Source: a virus (Duplodnaviria; Heunggongvirae; Uroviricota; Caudoviricetes). Taken from it: DNA of 44,699 bases. Both the position numbers and the translations under genes were made by a program. Location: the IMG/VR virus record IMGVR_UViG_2684622541_000016, one strand, 5' to 3'. The notes under the pieces were generated by a model. That model ran no database searches. It was not told where the DNA came from and was given only the letters and a program-made list of their open reading frames with translations. Of the stretch, positions 22,432 through 43,147 are shown piece after piece. Position 1 is the first letter of the stretch. Every line of letters begins with the position of its first letter.

Positions 22432-22517
22432 GCGGAGGTGTTGCTGGTAAAGTTAGGTATTGGATCAATGAGTGAGTCAACATAATATTAAACTCACAAT
22501 TATAAATCAGCCATATA

Positions 22518-23975
22518 TTAGGAGCGCCAAAAAAAACCTGAAAACAATATAATAACAGGATAAATTTCAAGGCGACCAAGAATCATAGCTATGCACATTA
22601 AATATTTTGCAATGTCATTAAGCACTCCGAATGACGATGCAGTAGCCCCAAAACCTAATCCCATATTATTAATACATGCAGCCACTGTTGCAAATGATGT
22701 AAGAAAATCATATCCCATACCATTTAACACCAGTATAAAAAACACCGTGAAGAGAGTATAAAGAAAAAAGAAACTCCATACAGACCTCATTACACGATCT
22801 GTAACTATCTTCCCTCCTACATTTACACTCAACAACGCTCTGGGATGAGAAAGCTGATTTATCTCGTGTTTGCTTTGTTTGAAAAGTATAAGAAATCGAA
22901 GTGACTTAATTCCACCACAGGTTGAACCTATACATCCCCCAAAGAAACTTGACAACAGCAAAAACACTATCGTGTGCGTGGGCCAGTTTGCATAATCCTG
23001 CGTAGCTAAACCATTATCAGTGAGCATGGAGCTGGCAAGAAAAAACGAATGAATAAAACTTCCATGCAAGTCATACATACCTATATGCCAGACCTGGAAA
23101 GAGGTAACAATGATCACCCCTAAGGCTATTAACAGAAAGAAACGAAGTTCAATATCTCTGATTAAAGGTTTTATCGTTTTTCTGCTAATAACAATATACC
23201 AAAGAGTGAAGTTGAAAGCCGATAGCAGGGAAAAAGAACCAGCCACCAGCTCAACCAAATAGTTATTAAAATATCCGATACTCTCGCTATGAGTTGAGAA
23301 ACCACCAAGCGAAACTGTGGAAATCCCGTGACAAATAGCATCAAACAAAGGCATTCCTGCAAGTCTATAACAGACAATACAAGCAATACCTAATAAAGAA
23401 TAAGTTATCCACAGTGTCCGTGACGTATCGGCCAGGCGGGGAGTGAGTTTGTCATCCTTAAATGGCCCCGGCATTTCTGACTGATAAAGCTTTGCACCAC
23501 CAATACCCAATAATGGCAATACTGCAACCGCCAGAACAATAACTCCTAAACCACCTATAAAATTTAACTGTGACCGATAGTACAAATATGCCCGAGGTAA
23601 TGAACTAACATCATCAATTACAGTTGCTCCTGTTGTTGTTATTCCAGAAACCCCTTCAAACAGAGCATCAATGAACGTTAAATTAAGTTCTGAGTCAATC
23701 CATAAAGGGAATGCACTAATAACAGAAAACAAAATCCAAAACATTACAATTATAATAAACCCATCACGGGTACGTAATTGAATGCCAGATTTCTTAGTTG
23801 TATACCACGCTCCGCCACCAATGCAAAAAAATATAACGAAAGTTATAAAGAAAACGAACAGGCTTTTTTCTTTATAAAACAATGCTACAACCATTGGTGG
23901 CAACATTGAAAGACTATAGAGCCAAACCAGGAACCCACACATATGAGTAACAACTCTTACATGAGATGTATTCAT
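22518..23975 (-). CDS. trkG: Trk-system potassium uptake protein TrkG (TrkH/KtrB family)
   Basis: Polytopic membrane protein with repeated glycine-containing selectivity-filter-like motifs (GITTTG, GGLG, GGFS, GLGF); 485 aa from MNTSHV; AT-rich; the Rac prophage of K-12 carries trkG at this position. Confidence 0.9.
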   Translation of the reverse strand: MNTSHVRVVTHMCGFLVWLYSLSMLPPMVVALFYKEKSLFVFFITFVIFFCIGGGAWYTTKKSGIQLRTRDGFIIIVMFWILFSVISAFPLWIDSELNLTFIDALFEGVSGITTTGATVIDDVSSLPRAYLYYRSQLNFIGGLGVIVLAVAVLPLLGIGGAKLYQSEMPGPFKDDKLTPRLADTSRTLWITYSLLGIACIVCYRLAGMPLFDAICHGISTVSLGGFSTHSESIGYFNNYLVELVAGSFSLLSAFNFTLWYIVISRKTIKPLIRDIELRFFLLIALGVIIVTSFQVWHIGMYDLHGSFIHSFFLASSMLTDNGLATQDYANWPTHTIVFLLLSSFFGGCIGSTCGGIKSLRFLILFKQSKHEINQLSHPRALLSVNVGGKIVTDRVMRSVWSFFFLYTLFTVFFILVLNGMGYDFLTSFATVAACINNMGLGFGATASSFGVLNDIAKYLMCIAMILGRLEIYPVIILFSGFFWRS

Positions 23976-24112
23976 ATCTAAATATTCTTTCAATTATAAC
24001 CACCTTGCTGCAATATTATGATTATACTGTATAAAATTTAACTCCTCTTAGATCTTACTTCACTGTTCCTTATGAAACAATCATCAAAATGAATCATATT
24101 GTAGTTAAGATT

Positions 24113-24589
24113 TTACTTTAAACACTGCTCGGTTATGTATTGCTGAGCACCTTCAAGTTGGGCCTGCATCATTACCAGTCGTTCCCGGAGGGTGAAATAA
24201 TCCCGTTCAGCGGTGTCTGCCAGTCGGGGGGAGGCTGCATTATCCACGCCGGAGGCGGTGGTGGCTTCACGCACTGACTGACAGACTGCTTTGATGTGCA
24301 ACCGACGACGACCAGCGGCAACATCATCACGCAGAGCATCATTTTCAGCTTTCGCATCAGCTAACTCCTTCGTGTATTTTGCATCGAGCGCAGCAACATC
24401 ACGCTGACGCATCTGCATGTCAGTAATTGCCGCGTTCGCCAGCTTCAGTTCTCTGGCATTTTTGTCGCGCTGGGCTTTGTAGGTAATGGCGTTATCACGG
24501 TAATGATTAACAGCCCATGACAGGCAGACGATGATGCAGATAACCAGAGCGGAGATAATCGCGGTTACTCTGTTCATTGCTGACCCCAC
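24113..24589 (-). CDS. i-spanin Rz
   Basis: 158 aa ORF with N-terminal transmembrane segment and coiled-coil periplasmic domain; follows the endolysin gene with overlap. Confidence 0.85.
24172..24357 (-). CDS. o-spanin Rz1 lipoprotein, embedded in Rz in the +1 frame
   Basis: 61 aa [26 protein letters not shown]... with lipobox VVGC and proline-rich mature region (PPPPPAW...PPPDW). Confidence 0.8.
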
Positions 24590-25077
24590 AAACAGATTTC
24601 ACGCTCAATCTCACGACGAGTCATGAGACCTTTCCATTGCTTACCGCCAGCATATGTCCAGCGACGTAGCTGATCACATGCGCCTTTGATATCGCCCTGG
24701 TTTATTTTGCGAAGAAGCGTCGATNNNNNNNNNNNNNNNNNNNNNNNNNNNNNNNNNNNNNNNNNNNNNNNNNNNNNNNNNNNNNNNNNNNNNNNNNNNN
24801 NNNNNNNNNNNNNNNNNNNNNNNNNNNNNNNNNNNNNNNNNNNNNNNNNNNNNNNNNNNNNNNNNNNNNNNNNNNNNNNNNNNNNNNNNNNNNNNNNNNN
24901 NNNNNNNNNNNNNNNNNNNNNNNNNNNNNNNNNNNNNNNNNNNNNNNNNNNNNNNNNNNNNNNNNNNNNNNNNTCCAGACCATCGTTACCACTTGGGCCA
25001 GTGATTAACACTGATGCTATAGCAATTGCTCCGCCACCAATAGCAGCAGCAACGACTTTTCGTAATGATGGAGGCAT
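24574..25077 (-). CDS. SAR endolysin (lysozyme, phage 21 R type); interrupted by a 249-nt N run
   Basis: N-terminus [34 protein letters not shown] is a signal-anchor-release-like segment; the C-terminus resembles the lysozyme family; start overlaps the holin stop (ATGA). Confidence 0.75.
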
Positions 25078-25292
25078 TATTCACCTCTCGCAGCCTTGCG
25101 CTTATCTTCTTTAATCTTGAAATAAAGGTTTGTCAGGTACGTCAGCAGGCCAAATACCAGACTACCCAGCACACCGATTGCAGCCCACTGTGACGGAGTT
25201 ACTCTATCGAGCAACTGTAAAAACCAGTAGCCAGCACTGCCTGCGGAGGTGCCGTAGGCAATGCCTGTTGAAATTTTGTCCATGGATTTCAT
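25077..25292 (-). CDS. Pinholin S (phage 21 S21 type), dual-start holin/antiholin
   Basis: [31 protein letters not shown]...[13 protein letters not shown], 71 aa, matches S21 as recalled; GGAGG ribosome binding site before the start; dual-start motif M-K-S-M. Confidence 0.85.
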
Positions 25293-25543
25293 AGCCTCAC
25301 CTCCGCACGGAACGGATGGCATAGTTATTATGTGTAGGCTTTCAGACACATCAATCAGAGCCTTAATTGATATATATGCTGGAGACGATGCAATATAAAA
25401 AGCTCGCCGTAGCGAGCTAATAAAATGTATTTCTCTGATATTATGTTTATTTGTATTAGCTCAGACTTGACATCACAGGTTTCGTATATAGAACATCATC
25501 AAATCTGTCAGTTTGCTATGAATGAGATATAGTAATTGAAGAG

Positions 25544-26518: not shown

Positions 26519-27107
26519 TTTTCCTCACATATGTCATATAGTAAAGGATTATATATACCGTTGTTTTGGACGCTCAAACAGCGAATCAGATCAAATAAAA
26601 CGCACATTTGTTAACATTTACACAAAGTCTGCGTGGGATATTCTGAAAGAATATCCATAATGTGGAGAGAATCTATTGAAGTGCATGGTGCCGGGTGCCT
26701 CCCGGTGAACAAAATGTTCGTGATACCTGTCGGCGACAGAAAAGGTTAATGGTATCACCCCACCGCACAGGGGGATTCACCATGCAGGAGTTTTCTTAGC
26801 AAACTCACTGCGCGCCCGGCAACTCCCAACCACATAAAATGCGGAGTTTGTGGCATTTATGCATATAACTCGCAGGAATTATCTTAAAAAACTGATGTCG
26901 ATCCGGATTAAAAAGAAGCAGGTCATCATCAGATGACTGGAAAAAAGGAAAACAAAAAATACTCATCATACAGTTTTGATTGCAGGGATGAGCCTGCTAT
27001 GCACAATATGCAGAATATAAGCAAGATAAAAATATGCAGGCATATTATTTCGGATCTTGTTATTAACACAACCTTTTTAATAATCATTTGGCATACAATA
27101 AACCAGC

Positions 27108-27482: not shown

Positions 27483-27562
27483 ACGATGTCCATGTCTGCA
27501 ATCCGCCTCGCGATACAGCTTTGCGAAGCATAGCAAAATTGAAGCAGTTTATACGTAAGAAA

Positions 27563-28105
27563 TCAAGCCATTTTCTCAGCAAATGATTCACGCATGGGAA
27601 TATATAGGGCATACTCAGCAACAGCTAACCAATTAGCAATCCGTTTTTCGCATGTGCTAAAACACCACTCTGGGTGTGCATCATTTAGCAATTCAGCCAT
27701 TTTGCGCTTAGTCATCCCCCGCCCTTCATAGCGTTGCCGGAGAATGCAAATCAATCCTGGATGCTCTGCCAGCACCTCACTTATGACTCGATCAATACAT
27801 AACGCCTCTGCATCAGTACAATGCGCCAGCCAGCTCTTTTGCTTGCCGTTGATCATCTCTCGCAAAAACGCTTCCAGCTCAGCTTTCTCTATTCCCGCTT
27901 TTTTCATTCTGCGCAGGGCTTCATTAATGGCTGTTTTCGTCAGTTTTTTGGATGCCAACAACTGATTGAACATATTCCCTGACCTGCCACCGCCAATATA
28001 CGACCAGCGCCCCCACATACGTAGTTTTCCCTGAATCCAGACACTTTCCAGCGTGGTGAGGCGAAGGTGTTCTCCGCTTTTTCCTGTATTCGTTGGGTAA
28101 ATCAT
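27563..28105 (-). CDS. Putative late-gene antiterminator (Q-like), assigned mainly by position
   Basis: 180 aa ORF immediately upstream of the terminator hairpins and lysis cassette, downstream of nin-like genes; overlaps the previous gene by 4 nt. Family not recognised with certainty. Confidence 0.45.
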   Translation of the reverse strand: MIYPTNTGKSGEHLRLTTLESVWIQGKLRMWGRWSYIGGGRSGNMFNQLLASKKLTKTAINEALRRMKKAGIEKAELEAFLREMINGKQKSWLAHCTDAEALCIDRVISEVLAEHPGLICILRQRYEGRGMTKRKMAELLNDAHPEWCFSTCEKRIANWLAVAEYALYIPMRESFAEKMA

Positions 28106-28392
28106 AAATGACCTTTCTTTCTCCAGATTTCTTGTGTGCGAAAAACCCCTTCAGCATGCATCAGGCGCAATTCTTCTTTGGTGTAATCGCTGGTTTTTAC
28201 CCGCCCGTCGATTAGATCGTGGCATGAGCTACAGGCTATCGCCGCCTGCATATCATGTGGTTTTGTCGCTGTTCCGCACGTCCCCGCCAGCCTGTAATGC
28301 GCCAGCACAGAGGTTTCGGGATTGTGATTGCAGTAGCCAGGGATTCTGATCTGGCACATCTGGCCTTTAGCCGCTTTACGTAAATTCACCAT
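28102..28392 (-). CDS. YbcO-like nin-region protein (DUF1364-like, Cys-rich putative nuclease)
   Basis: 96 aa ORF with several Cys (C-x6-C...C-x2-C); same size and position as ybcO of prophage DLP12 (from memory). Confidence 0.55.
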   Translation of the reverse strand: MVNLRKAAKGQMCQIRIPGYCNHNPETSVLAHYRLAGTCGTATKPHDMQAAIACSSCHDLIDGRVKTSDYTKEELRLMHAEGVFRTQEIWRKKGHL

Positions 28393-28991
28393 TACGCAAA
28401 CTCCAGTAGTTGTGCGGCCACATTTTCAACTTCCTCCTGAGAGGAGAATTTACGGAACAGAATCCAGTTCCACAGCACATTCAGTACAGATTTATAAACC
28501 TGCTGAAACTCGACTTCGTCCATATTCGCAAAAGCGATGGATTTTGCCCGACGCCCACGGCTACCGTCCGGATAAATATGCTCGGTGTAAAATCCGGCCT
28601 GAATGGTTACCCACTCGCGGAAAGCCTCAAACGACTTTAGCAACGCCGTATCCCGGGTTCTACGAGTCGCAACGGTGTTAAGGTATTGCTCTGCGGCATC
28701 ACTCAGGGCTGGCGTGTGTTCCCGACCAACTGATTCGCACAGGTAATCAACGAAACCAGACAGCAGTTCTCGTTCGCGAGGCGTGATCGCCCCACCGACC
28801 GGAGTCCAGTAATCGAATCCCAGTTGCAGGAGTTTGAAAAAACGCTTGTGGAATGCGTAGTTACGCACACGCTTAAAGTCTGCGTGTATCCACTCACCTA
28901 TTTTGATTTGATGCAGAAAATCGCAACTCTCCGGCGTCGCCGGGAGAAGTAAACCAGAAGAGGTTTGTTTGACCAGTTGTATATGCGCCAT
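28392..28991 (-). CDS. YbcN-like nin-region protein (DUF1367-like)
   Basis: 199 aa ORF translationally coupled to the ybcO-like gene (ATGA overlap); assignment from recollection only. Confidence 0.5.
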   Translation of the reverse strand: MAHIQLVKQTSSGLLLPATPESCDFLHQIKIGEWIHADFKRVRNYAFHKRFFKLLQLGFDYWTPVGGAITPRERELLSGFVDYLCESVGREHTPALSDAAEQYLNTVATRRTRDTALLKSFEAFREWVTIQAGFYTEHIYPDGSRGRRAKSIAFANMDEVEFQQVYKSVLNVLWNWILFRKFSSQEEVENVAAQLLEFA

Positions 28992-29271
28992 TTCTCAATC
29001 TCTCGATGGCGCAGCGCAGCAGATGCCAGTTGTTCAGGCTGACGAATAAAGTATAAATAAACTGGCTATGGTGTAAAGCCCCACATAGCATGAACAAACA
29101 CTACATATCAAATAGCTGGTACAAGGATAGAAATACGACACTTATTATTAAAAACGATTAGATAAATTACATTTTAATGTTATGCAAAAGTTCTTTTTTA
29201 TCATAACATTTCAATAAAAGCATTACAGATGCAATCATCCCGTCATCATCAATTATTTAAGGTGGTTAAAC

Positions 29272-29358
29272 ATGGAAAATAACAAGTTCGCACATCTCGC
29301 TCCTTTTTTATCCGTAATCCTTTTCGCTTGTTGTTTTATATGGGCATTATTTTTATAA
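29272..29358 (+). CDS. Small hydrophobic peptide (28 aa), type I toxin-like
   Basis: AAGGTGG ribosome binding site 6 nt before ATG; MENNKFAHLAPFLSVILFACCFIWALFL has a polar N-terminus and one transmembrane-like helix; lies in AT-rich DNA; not in the ORF track (under 60 aa). Confidence 0.3.
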   Translation: MENNKFAHLAPFLSVILFACCFIWALFL

Positions 29359-29766
29359 AGTAGCCACATGATAAGTTGCTGGAATCATATTTCCCACTCA
29401 AGTCATTAACATTTGATAAGATATATCTAAAAGGACGCCTTTACATTATTTATGCGTATATAATTTATTTATATACACAGTAAAGGTATCCTGGGAAAAT
29501 ATTTATCGTTAAAAAATACATCATAAATAATTAAGCTGAAATTTCAGAACACAACTAATACACACAATAAGGTTCAGTAACAGTAATCTATGTGGACTAC
29601 ATCGAGATTTTTTGATTAAACTTTAATAACTTATTCCTAACACACAGAATGCATAAACTAAAAGTAAAACAAATAGTTATACGAAAAACAACCATATTTA
29701 TTCTATCTTCTCCTCTAATCAACATATCAATTATGTGTTTCATAACAGCTTGACATAACCCTCCAA

Positions 29767-29789
29767 AAGATGCATTTTTAATGCATGTT
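29767..29789 (+). promoter_or_regulatory. NsrR-type operator (11-1-11 inverted repeat) upstream of the yeaR-like gene
   Basis: AAGATGCATTT t TAATGCATGTT: the left half equals the NsrR half-site as recalled (AAGATGCATTT) and the right half matches its complement at 9 of 11 positions; 16 nt upstream of the start codon. Confidence 0.5.
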
Positions 29790-29804
29790 TTGGAGGAGGT
29801 GGTT

Positions 29805-30143
29805 ATGACACACAAGAGAATTCCTAAAGATTGGGTAATCAAACGCTCAACTCCGTTCTTCACAAAAGAGAACGTACCTTCAGCGTTATTAACACATCAT
29901 AATACAGCAGCAGGTGTTTTTGGGCAGTTGTGCGTAATGGAAGGCACTGTAACATATTATGGTTTTACTGATGAGAATGCTACTGAACCGGAGATAAAAG
30001 TAGTCATTAATGCTGGCGCTTTTGCAACAAGCCCACCACAATACTGGCACCGTGTTGAACTAAGCGATGATGCTCAGTTTAATATTAACTTTTGGGTCGC
30101 TCCAGACTTTTCGGGCGAAAAAGTCTATAGCACCAAAAAATAG
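29805..30143 (+). CDS. YeaR-like DUF1971 protein
   Basis: GGAGGAGG ribosome binding site before ATG at 29805; product MTHKRIPKDWVIKRSTPFFTKENVPSALLTHHNTAAGVFGQL...FNINFWVAPD resembles E. coli YeaR (about 119 aa) as recalled. Confidence 0.65.
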   Translation: MTHKRIPKDWVIKRSTPFFTKENVPSALLTHHNTAAGVFGQLCVMEGTVTYYGFTDENATEPEIKVVINAGAFATSPPQYWHRVELSDDAQFNINFWVAPDFSGEKVYSTKK

Positions 30144-30172
30144 ATGATCATATTAAAAATGCTTTAACAGTC

Positions 30173-30209
30173 AGACCCGGCAGGGCTATCCCCGACGGGT
30201 CTCATTTTT
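30173..30209 (+). terminator. Intrinsic terminator after the yeaR-like gene
   Basis: Stem agacccg / cgggtct followed by caTTTTTg. Confidence 0.5.
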
Positions 30210-30361
30210 GTAAATATATTGGTTCTACATTGACAGGAGACTTCAACCATAAGAAGTAATCTGAATACTTGAGCAATAAATTTACTTAAGATTAATGAGC
30301 GCACCTTGCCGGACAAAGATAAACCAAGGTAACACCTTTTTTCTAGCCAGTATGTAATCAA

Positions 30362-30580
30362 TCAGAAAGCCGCTCCATAAGAACAACAGCAAGACAATAA
30401 ATTGCCATTACAGCCGCAATAGCCAGCGCACATTTGAGAACCAGCACGACAACCCCCTGTATTAGACGCACACCAGTCCTGATAAATATGAGGCTGTCTC
30501 GTCAGTGATTCAATACAACTATTGGGTATAGTTTCTGTGATTTTATTCTGTAGAAATGGAACACAACAACCAGTCACCAC
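30362..30580 (-). CDS. Cys-rich small hypothetical protein (about 72 aa)
   Basis: GTG start 6 nt after AAGGAA; 14 Cys including CC and CCC clusters (...CAGYCGCNGNLLSCCCSYGAAF); could be spurious. Confidence 0.25.
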   Translation of the reverse strand: MVTGCCVPFLQNKITETIPNSCIESLTRQPHIYQDWCASNTGGCRAGSQMCAGYCGCNGNLLSCCCSYGAAF

Positions 30581-30763
30581 CAGCACTTCCTTAAATGCTC
30601 TAAGTCAGAAACAAGCCAACATTTTAGTCCGCTTTGAGCGATCTGCAGACATTGCTAGCAGCCTTCTGTGTGAATTCTCAGGGAGCAGGTCGGCATAGCA
30701 TCACGTTGAGGCTCTTACCCTACTTGTTCACACCAACCCTAACTCCACAGACTGATTCATAAA

Positions 30764-31765
30764 TTAGTAATCTGCGTGTTTCGCACTTTTCAGAAATGCT
30801 TTCATATTTTCATTAGGTCGCTCAATTTCGAAGTTACTTCCATATAACTCTTGTAATTTTGGCCATAACTTACTTAATAACCCTCTCCTGCGATAAAATG
30901 GATGTATCCAAACGGTAGATAGGTACGGAGAATTTGCATTTGAATTGTTTATTGTGACCAGCCCAACTAAACATTGTCGATAACCACTATTATCCATTGA
31001 TTGTATTTCTTCGACGAATGGATACGCGATTACATCAGTCCAACCATGATCGGTTGTATCCCATTGCATTCCGTCATGACATTCCTTCGACTGATAGCGG
31101 CGTAAAGCTACACACGCGAGCTTTTGCCAATCTGGAGAATTAATTGTGATCTCTTCATCGTATGACGCGCCTATTGGAGCGGGTATTGGTCTGATTAATC
31201 CAGCATGGCATTCATCATAGAACTTCATGTTTCCCTCAGAAACGTTGTGTACGTTGGGTTGCTCCATGTGTGCGCCATTCAAAAATAGCTCTGATAGTAG
31301 TGTATCTACACTGTAATCTTTATTGATTATTGTCGGCTTAGAGTTTTTCTTATTAAGGCCGCGAGTAACGATTTTTTGATCAATGTTAACAACATGGAAT
31401 AATCCGTCGGGGAGGCTAGCGAACCACGATGGGGCATCGGACCAGAATAGCATGCCTTTTGTACTTCTTAAGAGTTTAATTAAGTTAATACAAGCTTCTT
31501 CACTAGTCTTGCCGTTGATGCGAAGTATGTTAGGACTAAAGTAATATTCATCCATATCAGGGAATGCAGCTTCGCAAAACTCCTGTACATAATTTAGCAC
31601 CTGGATTCTACAGAGATCATCATAGCTGGTAATAACTAAGGGGGTATCTTCATTACTATTATGATTATCAATAATGCAATCTATAGCGAGACTTACTGCT
31701 TTGCGTATCACTTCAGTTGAATCTAACGACTCTAAAAATTTTGTCTTTCGTGTGCGAATATCCAT
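30764..31765 (-). CDS. Hypothetical protein with GNAT acetyltransferase-like C-terminal motif
   Basis: 333 aa ORF in AT-rich DNA, 15 nt downstream of the HEPN-like gene; C-terminus ...CLVGLVTINNSNANSPYLSTVWIHPFYRRRGLLSKLWPKL fits GNAT motif A ([VI]-x-P-x-x-R-x-x-G). Confidence 0.55.
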   Translation of the reverse strand: MDIRTRKTKFLESLDSTEVIRKAVSLAIDCIIDNHNSNEDTPLVITSYDDLCRIQVLNYVQEFCEAAFPDMDEYYFSPNILRINGKTSEEACINLIKLLRSTKGMLFWSDAPSWFASLPDGLFHVVNIDQKIVTRGLNKKNSKPTIINKDYSVDTLLSELFLNGAHMEQPNVHNVSEGNMKFYDECHAGLIRPIPAPIGASYDEEITINSPDWQKLACVALRRYQSKECHDGMQWDTTDHGWTDVIAYPFVEEIQSMDNSGYRQCLVGLVTINNSNANSPYLSTVWIHPFYRRRGLLSKLWPKLQELYGSNFEIERPNENMKAFLKSAKHADY

Positions 31766-31780
31766 GTATGACCTGCGCTA

Positions 31781-32803
31781 TTAAAATTCATGAATGAACG
31801 GTTTGTCATCTGGTTGCAAAATGGTGGTTTTATTCGTTGCTACATTTAAACTGTTGTAGAGCATAATTGCCAGGTTCGATGCATTTTCAATCAGCGTTTC
31901 AAGATCCTGGTCTGTAATCACTACGAGGTTCCCTTCTTTATCCTTTCCACCACGATGCACTAAGTGATTTCGATTGAGGGTTGCCAATTCAATAGCTTCT
32001 ATCGGACAGTCTTTTTGTACTTTTATATCGAATGTAGCTTCATAGCGGTCGATTACCTTTTTAGTGCTATGCCAGCTTGCACTGATCAAGTGTTCCTTGA
32101 TTGACCTGATTAGCTCTCCCCTAATTTTCTCGATGGGTTCACCCTTGAAAGGCAACGCAGCAATATCTTTGCTTACTTTAAATTCAGTCTTACCTTTTTC
32201 TATACAATTGGCTATGTAGACATCATCTTTCTCTATAGAATTAATGAATAGCTCAACATAAAGCGTTTCCAAAGCTGTAATAACATTCGTGTAGAGCAAA
32301 CTAAGCAAGTGGTTTTTTTGCTGTTGTTCAGTTTTATCTTTTGCAAGTTTTTTTATTTTATCGATATTATCAATGAATTTTAAATACGGATTACCGGAAG
32401 ACGTTACAGCGTCGTAGATATCATCATCGTACCAATCATCTATATTATTTGAGTTTCCAGACCAGTCAAAACATTGTGTTTGTAATTCATCTACTAATTC
32501 CTCAATATACTCAGATTTAACATATTGACCGAAGATGGATTGTAGTTCTTCGCTCGCATCATACGGCCCGCCATATATGTAAGCATAGCCACCTTCTCTA
32601 CTTTCATACGGACAAGCATTTGCCGGATCTTCAAAGTTTTCAAAGAACCAGTTTTTCATTACTTCGAGTTGATCTTTTTTGCTTATGTATTTTAAAGATT
32701 TTAGTGGAACTTTCTTTCCATTAACCTCGAAAACAATTTTCACGATGTAACGCTCCCTTGTATCAATTGCGCAACTATTATACCACAGCGAAATACAGGG
32801 CAT
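31781..32803 (-). CDS. Hypothetical protein with C-terminal HEPN-like R-x4-H motif
   Basis: ORF 31781-32872; start placed at ATG 32803 (GGAGG 6 nt upstream), alternative GTG at 32743 (AGGGAG upstream, extended -10 TGGTATAAT at 32777-32787); ...ATLNRNHLVHRGG... carries R-x4-H near the C-terminus; AT-rich codon usage. Confidence 0.55.
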   Translation of the reverse strand: MPCISLWYNSCAIDTRERYIVKIVFEVNGKKVPLKSLKYISKKDQLEVMKNWFFENFEDPANACPYESREGGYAYIYGGPYDASEELQSIFGQYVKSEYIEELVDELQTQCFDWSGNSNNIDDWYDDDIYDAVTSSGNPYLKFIDNIDKIKKLAKDKTEQQQKNHLLSLLYTNVITALETLYVELFINSIEKDDVYIANCIEKGKTEFKVSKDIAALPFKGEPIEKIRGELIRSIKEHLISASWHSTKKVIDRYEATFDIKVQKDCPIEAIELATLNRNHLVHRGGKDKEGNLVVITDQDLETLIENASNLAIMLYNSLNVATNKTTILQPDDKPFIHEF

Positions 32804-32941
32804 AACCTGCCTCCTTAAACTAACATACCATGAGCCAGCAATGTCCGCTATTGGCACAAAGCGGACAACCACGCTAGCTCTCCCCTGTGCCAGAAAAATG
32901 TCAATTTACATATGAACTAATGCTCTTTGATCTAGTAACGT

Positions 32942-33358
32942 CTATAAATACCGAAGATTTCCTTGATAAAATGCCAGTACACGTTTCATAACTTCACTCT
33001 TCCGGCACTCGCGACAGATTATGTTCTGACGCCTGTCATAGCGGCGTATTTCTCCGTCTGGTAATGACCAGATAAGGTCAGGATCAACCACAACCGTTTT
33101 TTTCACCTTTGCCCTGGATAGTTTTTTGCGGGCGTTTTTCCAATCCTTACGAGCCTGTTCAGACGGGAATAACCCATAGCCAGAGTTGTATACATCGCCA
33201 CTGGCAACCAACTCTCTGGCAAGAATGCTCATCAGATATCTTGTCGCACCTGTCTTGGCCTCCAGTTGCCTTAACGTCTCGCGCCCACTCTGGCGTACCA
33301 ACTCAACAACCTGCTCCTTAATTTTTTCACGCTCTTCCTGTGTAAAAACTTTTGCCAT
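32942..33358 (-). CDS. Hypothetical phage protein
   Basis: Start MAKVFTQEE at 33358 with GGAGG ribosome binding site; basic, helical-looking 138 aa protein; follows the gene ending at 33374. Confidence 0.5.
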   Translation of the reverse strand: MAKVFTQEEREKIKEQVVELVRQSGRETLRQLEAKTGATRYLMSILARELVASGDVYNSGYGLFPSEQARKDWKNARKKLSRAKVKKTVVVDPDLIWSLPDGEIRRYDRRQNIICRECRKSEVMKRVLAFYQGNLRYL

Positions 33359-42958: not shown

Positions 42959-43147
42959 ATGTATAAAATTACCGCCACTATTGAAAAGGAAGGTGGCACT
43001 CCTACTAACTGGACAAGATATTCAAAATCTAAACTAACGAAATCAGAATGCGAAAAAATGCTCTCAGGTAAAAAAGAAGCAGGCGTTTCCAGAGAGCAGA
43101 AAGTAAAACTGATAAATTTTAATTGCGAGAAACTTCAGTCCTCGTGA
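42959..43147 (+). CDS. Small hypothetical protein (YdaC-like by position)
   Basis: GGAGG ribosome binding site; MYKITATIEKEGGTPTNWTRYSKSKLTKSECEKMLSGKK..., 62 aa. Confidence 0.45.
   Translation: MYKITATIEKEGGTPTNWTRYSKSKLTKSECEKMLSGKKEAGVSREQKVKLINFNCEKLQSS

Follow-up and report, generated by a model that had tools for sequence, protein, structure and literature searches.

Do two adjacent genes carried by a lambdoid prophage form a single toxin-like module, or are they separate pieces of cargo that travel together? We addressed this question in IMG/VR record IMGVR_UViG_2684622541_000016, a 44,699-nucleotide (nt) stretch of DNA (the window, to which positions refer unless another locus is named) that represents a Rac-like lambdoid prophage of Escherichia coli. 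Gene A (31781-32743; 320 amino acids (aa); WP_014639476.1; phrog_17908) is predicted to combine a PF18870-type N-terminal domain with a C-terminal HEPN domain, and gene B (30764-31765; 333 aa; WP_000354966.1; phrog_16994) an N-terminal alpha/beta domain with a divergent C-terminal GNAT domain. Both lie on the minus strand and are separated by exactly 15 nt, as had already been seen in a first-pass annotation made from the sequence alone, which proposed a candidate two-gene defence or toxin module. Part of that proposal holds, since the pair looks like defence-type cargo in a defence-rich context, but its implied toxin-antitoxin logic does not. The reading we favour, with moderate confidence, is that the segment 30627-32866 is a mobile cargo cassette with two separable defence-type genes, of which A would encode an infection-activated HEPN ribonuclease (RNase) and B an acetyltransferase.

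When we looked for the pair elsewhere it proved to be shared across genera, and solo homologues of each gene were found too. Specifically, A and B are present together in 209 of the 5,426 complete E. coli genomes (approximately 4%) at 99-100% identity, including the type strain ATCC 11775, APEC O1 and S88, as well as in Serratia grimesii (locus L003; 97% nt identity, with homology ending at window position 30627), in a Logan contig (79% nt identity) and in Aeromonas islands, where an 86% nt-identical block spans exactly 30722-32802. The neighbours of the Aeromonas copies are ThsA/ThsB (Thoeris), a TIR_2 protein, SIR2 with cREC, a relaxase and integron remnants. An intact pair with both of the boundary repeats described below is also carried by the 136-kb multiresistance plasmid NZ_CP069974.1 (34967-36946; L120), between IS26 and a ydfV-relB-relE remnant and near erm(B) and qnrS1, a position which shows that capture by IS26 took the cassette out of a prophage. 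The pair, about 2.1 kb long, has been transferred as a unit across E. coli prophages, Serratia, an IS26 plasmid and Aeromonas islands; no copy of it was present in the INPHARED phage collection. A three-gene module, in which the gene for a 138-aa protein ahead of the pair in Aeromonas would be a DUF977 homologue, was considered and rejected (BLASTP E of at least 1), the equal length of the two proteins being coincidental.

An inverted-repeat search located the ends of the mobile unit. The right boundary repeat, IRR, is GTCCGCTTTGTGCCAATAGCGGACATTGCTGGC (32834-32866, minus strand; nhmmer E 2.8e-8), and the left one, IRL, is GTCCGCTTTGAGCGATCTGCAGACATTGCTAGC (30627-30659, plus strand), identical to IRR at 26 of 33 positions and inverted. 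Similarity between the window and unrelated contexts stops exactly at the outer GTCCGC of the repeats, and this hexamer marks where the unit ends, giving a cassette of 2.24 kb (30627-32866). The repeat family has a consensus of about GTCYGCTTTGWGCSA...GCGGACATTG, which can also be written GTCYGCTTTG..GCGGACATTG.., and is widespread, framing AT-rich cassettes in prophages, islands and plasmids and being found in 3,522 of the 5,426 E. coli genomes (approximately 65%). With an nhmmer model built from the 33-bp repeat we scanned IMG/VR for the repeat pattern and obtained 56 loci, 31 of them without A and B; in 18 of these 31 a second convergent copy was detected at E < 0.01, 0.5-5.9 kb away (mostly 1.6-3.4 kb), and one further locus had a weak second copy. 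In most of the cassettes sampled the enclosed DNA is AT-rich, with a G+C content of 0.33-0.38 against 0.43-0.53 for the locus. Neighbouring cassettes are parted by back-to-back repeats 18-24 nt apart, and copies were placed in L004 (7319-7350/7369-7401), L086 (9751-9783/9802-9828), L010 (5828-5857/5882-5906), L122-L177 and L178 (4001-4032/4987-5015).

The cargo framed by this repeat includes DarT/DarG, PD-Lambda-1, PD-T7-1, Hp1-Hp3 (Rst_3HP) and PDC-S15, along with several unannotated genes, and in one cassette PD-T4-3 occurs together with B. Several of the repeat-framed cassettes abut DUF977. Elsewhere the slot after DUF977 holds QueH and hokD in one prophage, and an alpha/beta hydrolase and hokD in an O157 prophage. 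Neither target-site duplications, nor attC-like cores, nor a linked recombinase were found at the repeats examined, and none of the 5,426 complete E. coli genomes contained an empty site joining both flanks of the window. Cassettes may be exchanged by short homology. The boundary hairpins were also considered as intrinsic terminators, which was not convincing (no T-runs; folding z-score only -1.4). A search of the literature returned no description of the 33-bp repeat.

Some other occupants of such slots are worth recording in their own right. In E. coli strain 181.1, which shares the left flank of the window (27504-30641) and has a perfect-hairpin boundary motif at the junction, an operon in the slot (L121 4030-6355) encodes a ThsA-type SIR2, an adenosine deaminase and a pyrophosphatase for non-canonical purine NTPs, a trio that may be another defence system. 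In S. grimesii a back-to-back boundary repeat is followed by a gene (L003 7480-9462) whose 660-aa product has the Walker A motif GPPGTGKT and, judged from its sequence, looks like a McrB/AAA+ restriction subunit. R-x4-H proteins are encoded in neighbouring cassettes of L004 (250 aa) and L086 (209 aa); neither has a Pfam or PADLOC match, and the 250-aa protein showed no similarity to A on comparison.

The two genes nonetheless come apart. Homologues of A at 74% identity or less are solo, some residing in islands of the P4-like or integrase type and others at the ends of prophages or with Mu-like baseplate genes on either side (L035-L047, L102-L109), and homologues of B at 62% identity or less are solo in marine gammaproteobacteria (L005-L013); no replacement partner was seen beside these solo homologues. 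A has been lost in Rahnella, Enterobacter and two viral contigs, where B, at 86% aa identity, lies behind the same upstream leader. The last 40-65 nt of A remain in these A-deleted loci, including its clade-specific tail, and the -10 element is kept in the commoner type; since there are two different deletion junctions, A was deleted at least twice independently. Conversely, in strain SF-173 an insertion sequence (IS1A, of the IS1 type) interrupts B next to an intact and identical A, and in 4 of the 209 E. coli genomes a truncated A accompanies an intact B. Both genes are under purifying selection (omega of 0.06-0.18 for A, mostly 0.12-0.45 for B and about 0.26 for B in the A-less loci). A and B are a unit as a piece of DNA, and neither gene depends on the other, so an obligate two-gene module is not supported.

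What, then, would each protein do? The N-terminal part of A (residues ~1-100; 32444-32743, minus strand) is a HEPN/RES NTD1-like domain by the PF18870 profile, with a conserved motif running W32-F33..E38-D39-P40..P45-Y46..E50-G51-G52-Y53..G58-G59-P60-Y61..W94. The profile matched 62 of 67 aligned relatives of A at E ≤ 0.01 (best 1e-6), and several proteins that share only this N-terminal domain exceed its cut-off. The C-terminal part (residues ~119-308; 31820-32389, minus strand) is a helical bundle of the HEPN fold, and no RES domain was found in A. Within it lies the catalytic-type Rx4H motif R258-N-H-L-V-H263 (RNHLVH; 31955-31972, minus strand), which had been picked out before. A bare R-x4-H string is at chance level, and indeed occurs twice in the 340-aa reading of A (RSIKEH and RNHLVH); only RNHLVH is invariant, and the weight rests on that invariance among relatives together with the fold. 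In the 67-sequence alignment R258, H263 and R264 are invariant, and R258-H263 is kept by all homologues of full length, even those at 26% identity, as are E159 and W224-H225. PF18735 (the RiboL-PSP HEPN family) was matched by 31 of the 67 relatives (best E 7e-11). Judged by alignment and fold, A is a genuine HEPN-fold protein and a superfamily member nearest to PF18735, with a predicted RNase activity. The A proteins of the clade that carries the pair share a distinct C-terminal tail, ..LQPDxKxFIHxF, which solo A proteins do not have.

The N-terminal domain of A is found on other proteins as well. In viral contigs (L048-L066; P0116-P0120) it is fused to PIN_8 nucleases (L064, P0117) and also to a second C-terminal module, found repeatedly, that bears the motif GHNxPPE, closes with ..LPF/WPF at the end of a hydrophobic tail and may be a membrane effector. 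Fusion to such varied C-terminal modules suggests that the PF18870 domain is a sensor, adaptor or regulator with swappable effectors.

For B, the C-terminal residues (~195-333; 30767-31183, minus strand) adopt a GNAT fold, as the first-pass annotation had supposed. This is indicated by stand-alone relatives, by a near-threshold Pfam match and by Foldseek, which, with a confident model (predicted local distance difference test (pLDDT) 90; predicted template modelling score (pTM) 0.81), retrieved HAT1, ESCO1, MYST, AAC (aminoglycoside) and SSAT (polyamine) acetyltransferases at a probability of ~1 and E from 2e-4. The relatives P0164, P0166 and P0198 carry PF00583. The segment IHPFYRRRG (30881-30907, minus strand), in the beta4-alpha3 region, resembles GNAT motif A; in the alignment H288, P289 and R292 are invariant among relatives but G295 is not: most have it, and in four it is displaced or missing. 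A profile search covering 1.84 billion representatives recovered the full-length architecture in only about ten 50%-identity clusters and showed the N-terminal 175 residues in no other architecture; for residues 180-330 it gave many stand-alone relatives (phrog_36762-like), 150-170 aa long, with E values from 1e-37 to 1e-20. In one case (L117 4001-4483) the gene for such a relative lies in a phage replication module, where it overlaps the stop codon of the DUF3987 gene that it follows.

Expression of the pair was also reconsidered. The earlier gene call for A (31781-32803) began at ATG 32803, but the start is most likely GTG 32743, because the Prokaryotic Genome Annotation Pipeline (PGAP) calls GTG 32743 and because all pair-clade homologues open with V/MKIVFEVNGKK behind a conserved CAAGGAG Shine-Dalgarno. 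ATG 32803 is not conserved, since similarity to Aeromonas and L097 begins just upstream of the -10 (in Aeromonas at window 32802), and it is incompatible with the proposed promoter, whose -10 sits downstream of it. That promoter-like element, an extended -10 (TGGTATAAT; 32777-32785, minus strand), is shorter than the 32777-32787 span originally given for it, and is preserved as TGnTAnAAT in E. coli, Serratia, Aeromonas and L097 despite differing flanks; conservation in four lineages makes it the best available evidence for a promoter of the cassette's own. A scan for the sigma-70 -35/-10 consensus did not list it. Of the ribosome binding sites, claimed to be strong, that of A is AAGGGAG (32753-32759, minus strand), 9 nt ahead of GTG 32743, and the GCAGG of B is modest.

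Upstream of the conserved -10, a strong Shine-Dalgarno TAAGGAGG (32801-32818) and ATG 32803 are retained in the Enterobacteriaceae copies and absent from Aeromonas. In the A-less loci L087/L110 the upstream ATG opens a remnant open reading frame of 13-34 aa that ends 15 nt before B. A conserved leader peptide was rejected, as was ATG 32803 as a start, the small frame being in-frame in some A-less loci and out-of-frame in others.

Putting these features together, our preferred reading of a cassette with two separable defence-type genes would work as follows. A and B would be transcribed in the lysogen from their own extended -10 promoter, and A would unite sensor and effector in one self-contained protein, its PF18870-type N-terminal domain holding the HEPN ribonuclease in a default-off state until an infection cue arrives. 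Activated A, probably dimeric and using R258 and H263 as catalytic residues, would then cut host or phage RNA (tRNA or mRNA), and this cleavage would abort the infection. B would be an acetyl-CoA-dependent GNAT-fold transferase acting on some protein or small-molecule target, whether on its own or in an accessory role to A; since each gene occurs alone and has been naturally lost, B would not be the antitoxin of A. The folds, motifs, operon structure, transfer as a unit, separability and defence-rich context are observations, and from them we infer the RNase activity, the activation by phage, the abortive outcome, the acetyltransferase activity of B and any anti-phage effect. The defence role gains from its context, that is, from the Thoeris, SIR2 and TIR neighbours in Aeromonas and the known systems in cassettes with the same repeat. 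This makes both genes good candidates as novel defence genes, but such guilt by association is suggestive only.

Several results weigh against this reading. The A protein of the window falls below the gathering cut-off of PF18870 (E 1.9e-4; 22.2 bits, cut-off 27.4) and has no match to PF18735 at E ≤ 1. B is likewise sub-threshold for PF00583, scoring 19.9 bits against a cut-off of 20.7 over residues 264-311, and its motif A (consensus Q/R-x-x-G-x-G/A) reads R292-R-R-G295-L-L, the last G/A position never being G or A in the sequences shown; with L in place of the second G/A the motif is partly degenerate, and catalysis, though plausible, is not assured. In the Qin prophage of K-12 the repeat pair encloses flxA, a non-defence cargo, beside relBE-hokD. 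The defence scan with PADLOC v2 (v2.0.0, 2023 library) gave no match, with A at chance level only (E of at least 0.011) and nothing for B, in line with the first-pass remark that neither protein is a named defence family. Finally, the 15-nt spacing and the co-transfer across genera would also fit a cooperating pair.

Such a cooperative, even obligate, two-component system is one alternative. Here B would sense infection, or acetylate a target (or A itself), and so license or tune the HEPN RNase, the pair being the functional unit in this clade. The single promoter and 15-nt gap would suit it, as would the pairs kept intact in E. coli, Serratia, Aeromonas and L097, where identity falls as low as 78% for A and 74% for B, the near-constant association of the genes in the 209 E. 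coli genomes, and the ..LQPDxKxFIHxF tail that is missing from solo A proteins. We nevertheless consider it unlikely, given that at least two deletions of A have left B in place under purifying selection, that IS1 has broken B beside an intact A, and that the lower-identity homologues of each gene are solo with no replacement partner seen. The same natural variation largely refutes a classical toxin-antitoxin pair, whether a HEPN toxin with a GNAT antitoxin or a GNAT toxin with a HEPN-protein antitoxin: many genomes carry one gene without the other, and natural loss of either partner is compatible with viability. Neither B nor the neighbouring genes provide an MNT, RHH or DUF1778 partner, and with 333 aa and two domains B is unlike the GNAT toxins of 160-175 aa, making a toxin-antitoxin arrangement very unlikely in either direction.

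The genes could also serve something other than host defence, as lysogenic-conversion or counter-defence cargo in which B would disable a protein of the host or of a rival phage and A would process RNA for the prophage. AcrVA5, a small GNAT anti-CRISPR that acetylates and disables its target, offers a model; short relatives of the B GNAT domain occur in phage replication modules, for instance directly after the DUF3987 gene in L117, and the slot also carries QueH and flxA, which are not defence genes. We think this somewhat less probable still than a cooperating pair, as the cassette is also found outside prophages (in Aeromonas islands by Thoeris and SIR2/TIR, and on the IS26 resistance plasmid) and the domain architecture of A mirrors that of validated defence proteins. 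That the genes hitch-hike and at present do nothing for host or phage has nothing positive in its favour, all database annotations reading 'hypothetical'. It is very unlikely in view of the purifying selection on both genes, their intact transfer across genera and an identity of 99-100% across the 209 E. coli genomes.

A bolder reading builds on the preferred one, and we offer it as speculation. A and B may belong to an undescribed class of portable defence cassettes, for which the 33-bp inverted repeat would be the recombination handle by which enterobacterial prophages, islands and plasmids swap immune cargo such as DarTG, PD-Lambda-1, PD-T7-1 and Rst_3HP. In that case the aRES-type sensor family would gain, in A, a new branch with a HEPN effector, and B would be the first anti-phage effector or modulator that is based on an acetyltransferase and has a sensing domain of its own.

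The setting of the pair agrees with a cargo slot. On the minus-strand reading, the immunity genes and ydaT/ydaU are followed by DnaC, DUF1627, DUF977 and then A and B, beyond which come an AT-rich stretch, the nin-like genes DUF1367/DUF1364/DUF1133 and the lysis genes. Two further first-pass claims were borne out here: the pair occupies a moron position, flanked by replication-module and nin-like genes in a slot that varies between prophages, and it sits in an AT-rich island, with a G+C content of 0.37-0.41 over 30000-33000 against ~0.50 in the replication genes to the right.

Other parts of the window show further features. The most AT-rich stretch of the neighbourhood, 29000-30143 (0.33 G+C over 29001-30000), may be a separate moron; its DUF1971 gene, which runs on the opposite strand from 29781 or 29805 to 30143, has its start overlapped by a near-perfect 17-bp hairpin (29760-29796). 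A second AT-rich island (22500-25500; 0.34-0.39 G+C) lies near the lysis/tolA-like/trkG region. The Rfam scan of the window matched only two small RNAs, both outside the locus of A and B: the antitoxin RalA of the RalR/RalA type I system (42965-43143, minus strand; 225 bits) and STnc100 (26629-26815, minus strand; 87 bits). No tRNA genes were present in the window.

These results would matter on several levels. If A protects against phage, the validated aRES design would extend from NAD+ depletion to RNA cleavage, and the shared PF18870 domain would be the place to seek a common infection sensor. With B, acetyltransferases would join the few enzymatic activities employed in, or against, phage defence. 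Since the pair is present in approximately 4% of complete E. coli genomes, ATCC 11775, APEC O1 and S88 among them, it may shape the phage susceptibility of clinically relevant lineages, and the boundary repeat, which flags cargo slots in some 65% of the E. coli genomes and several of whose cassettes still lack annotation, could be a cheap search handle for new defence genes.

How does the pair compare with systems already described? PDB sequence and profile searches with A and B returned nothing meaningful, the NCBIfam search nothing useful, and a literature search by accession, PHROG number and Pfam name no paper describing either protein. One close parallel to A is aRES, an experimentally validated standalone protein of defence islands in which the PF18870 N-terminal domain is joined to a toxic RES NADase and which halts growth once the cell is infected (Osterman et al., bioRxiv 10.64898/2026.01.28.702374). 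The A family matches the PF18870 profile in 62 of 67 relatives and its distant members are standalone, but the A effector is a HEPN RNase-type domain instead of a RES NADase, and the A of the window is in an operon with B. Because it has no RES domain, A is to be classed, by its predicted architecture, as an analogue of aRES and not as a member. A second precedent is HepS (STM14_3211), a solo HEPN abortive-infection protein of fewer than 250 aa from the Salmonella prophage Gifsy-1, which is triggered by the siphovirus tail tip J and targets tRNA anticodon loops (PMC13043305). HepS thus illustrates that a HEPN protein encoded in the same region of a lambdoid prophage and acting solo can detect an infection as well as abort it through tRNA cleavage, although it has no detectable sequence similarity to A, no PF18870 domain and a shorter length. 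It was the N-terminal domain of aRES together with the HepS precedent that led us to propose A as a default-off, infection-activated HEPN RNase.

Within the HEPN superfamily, Ribo L-PSP-HEPN (PF18735) is distantly related to AbiD/AbiF and keeps the active Rx4-6H (Anantharaman et al. 2013, PMC3710099). Almost half of the A relatives match it (31 of 67), but the A of the window, as stated, does not, and has neither an L-PSP fusion nor a ParB neighbour. A review lists PF18735 under PD-T4-2, PD-T4-5, PD-T7-3 and ApeA, none of which was listed for A at E ≤ 1 in the PADLOC scan. Nor does A resemble the HEPN toxin of a HEPN-MNT pair in its company, as no nucleotidyltransferase domain was found in B or in the neighbours.

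For B the natural comparison is with TacT and AtaT, which are GNAT toxins. The C-terminal 140 residues of B share the GNAT fold and a motif A-like R-x-x-G after beta4, but B differs from these toxins in its length of 333 aa, in an N-terminal domain found only in its family, in the missing second G/A of motif A and in having no antitoxin-type neighbour. The first-pass analogy with tRNA-acetylating GNAT toxins is not sustained on these grounds, including the lack of a DUF1778 or RHH partner: the structural matches are other GNATs, with no GNAT toxin among the top 50.

As to mobility, integron cassettes and mobile insertion cassettes are gene cassettes with boundary repeats, but at the repeat of A and B no attC-like core, associated recombinase or target-site duplication was found. 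The defence hotspots of P2/P4 phages and satellites are fixed slots with interchangeable defence cargo (PMC9122126). The slot described here resembles them as a fixed position in a prophage backbone whose interchangeable AT-rich cargo is enriched in defence systems, and differs in that a 33-bp inverted repeat frames the cargo and travels with it into non-phage contexts. On present comparisons A is placed outside aRES, HepS and the families of the 2023 PADLOC library, and B is a divergent GNAT with a novel N-terminal domain.

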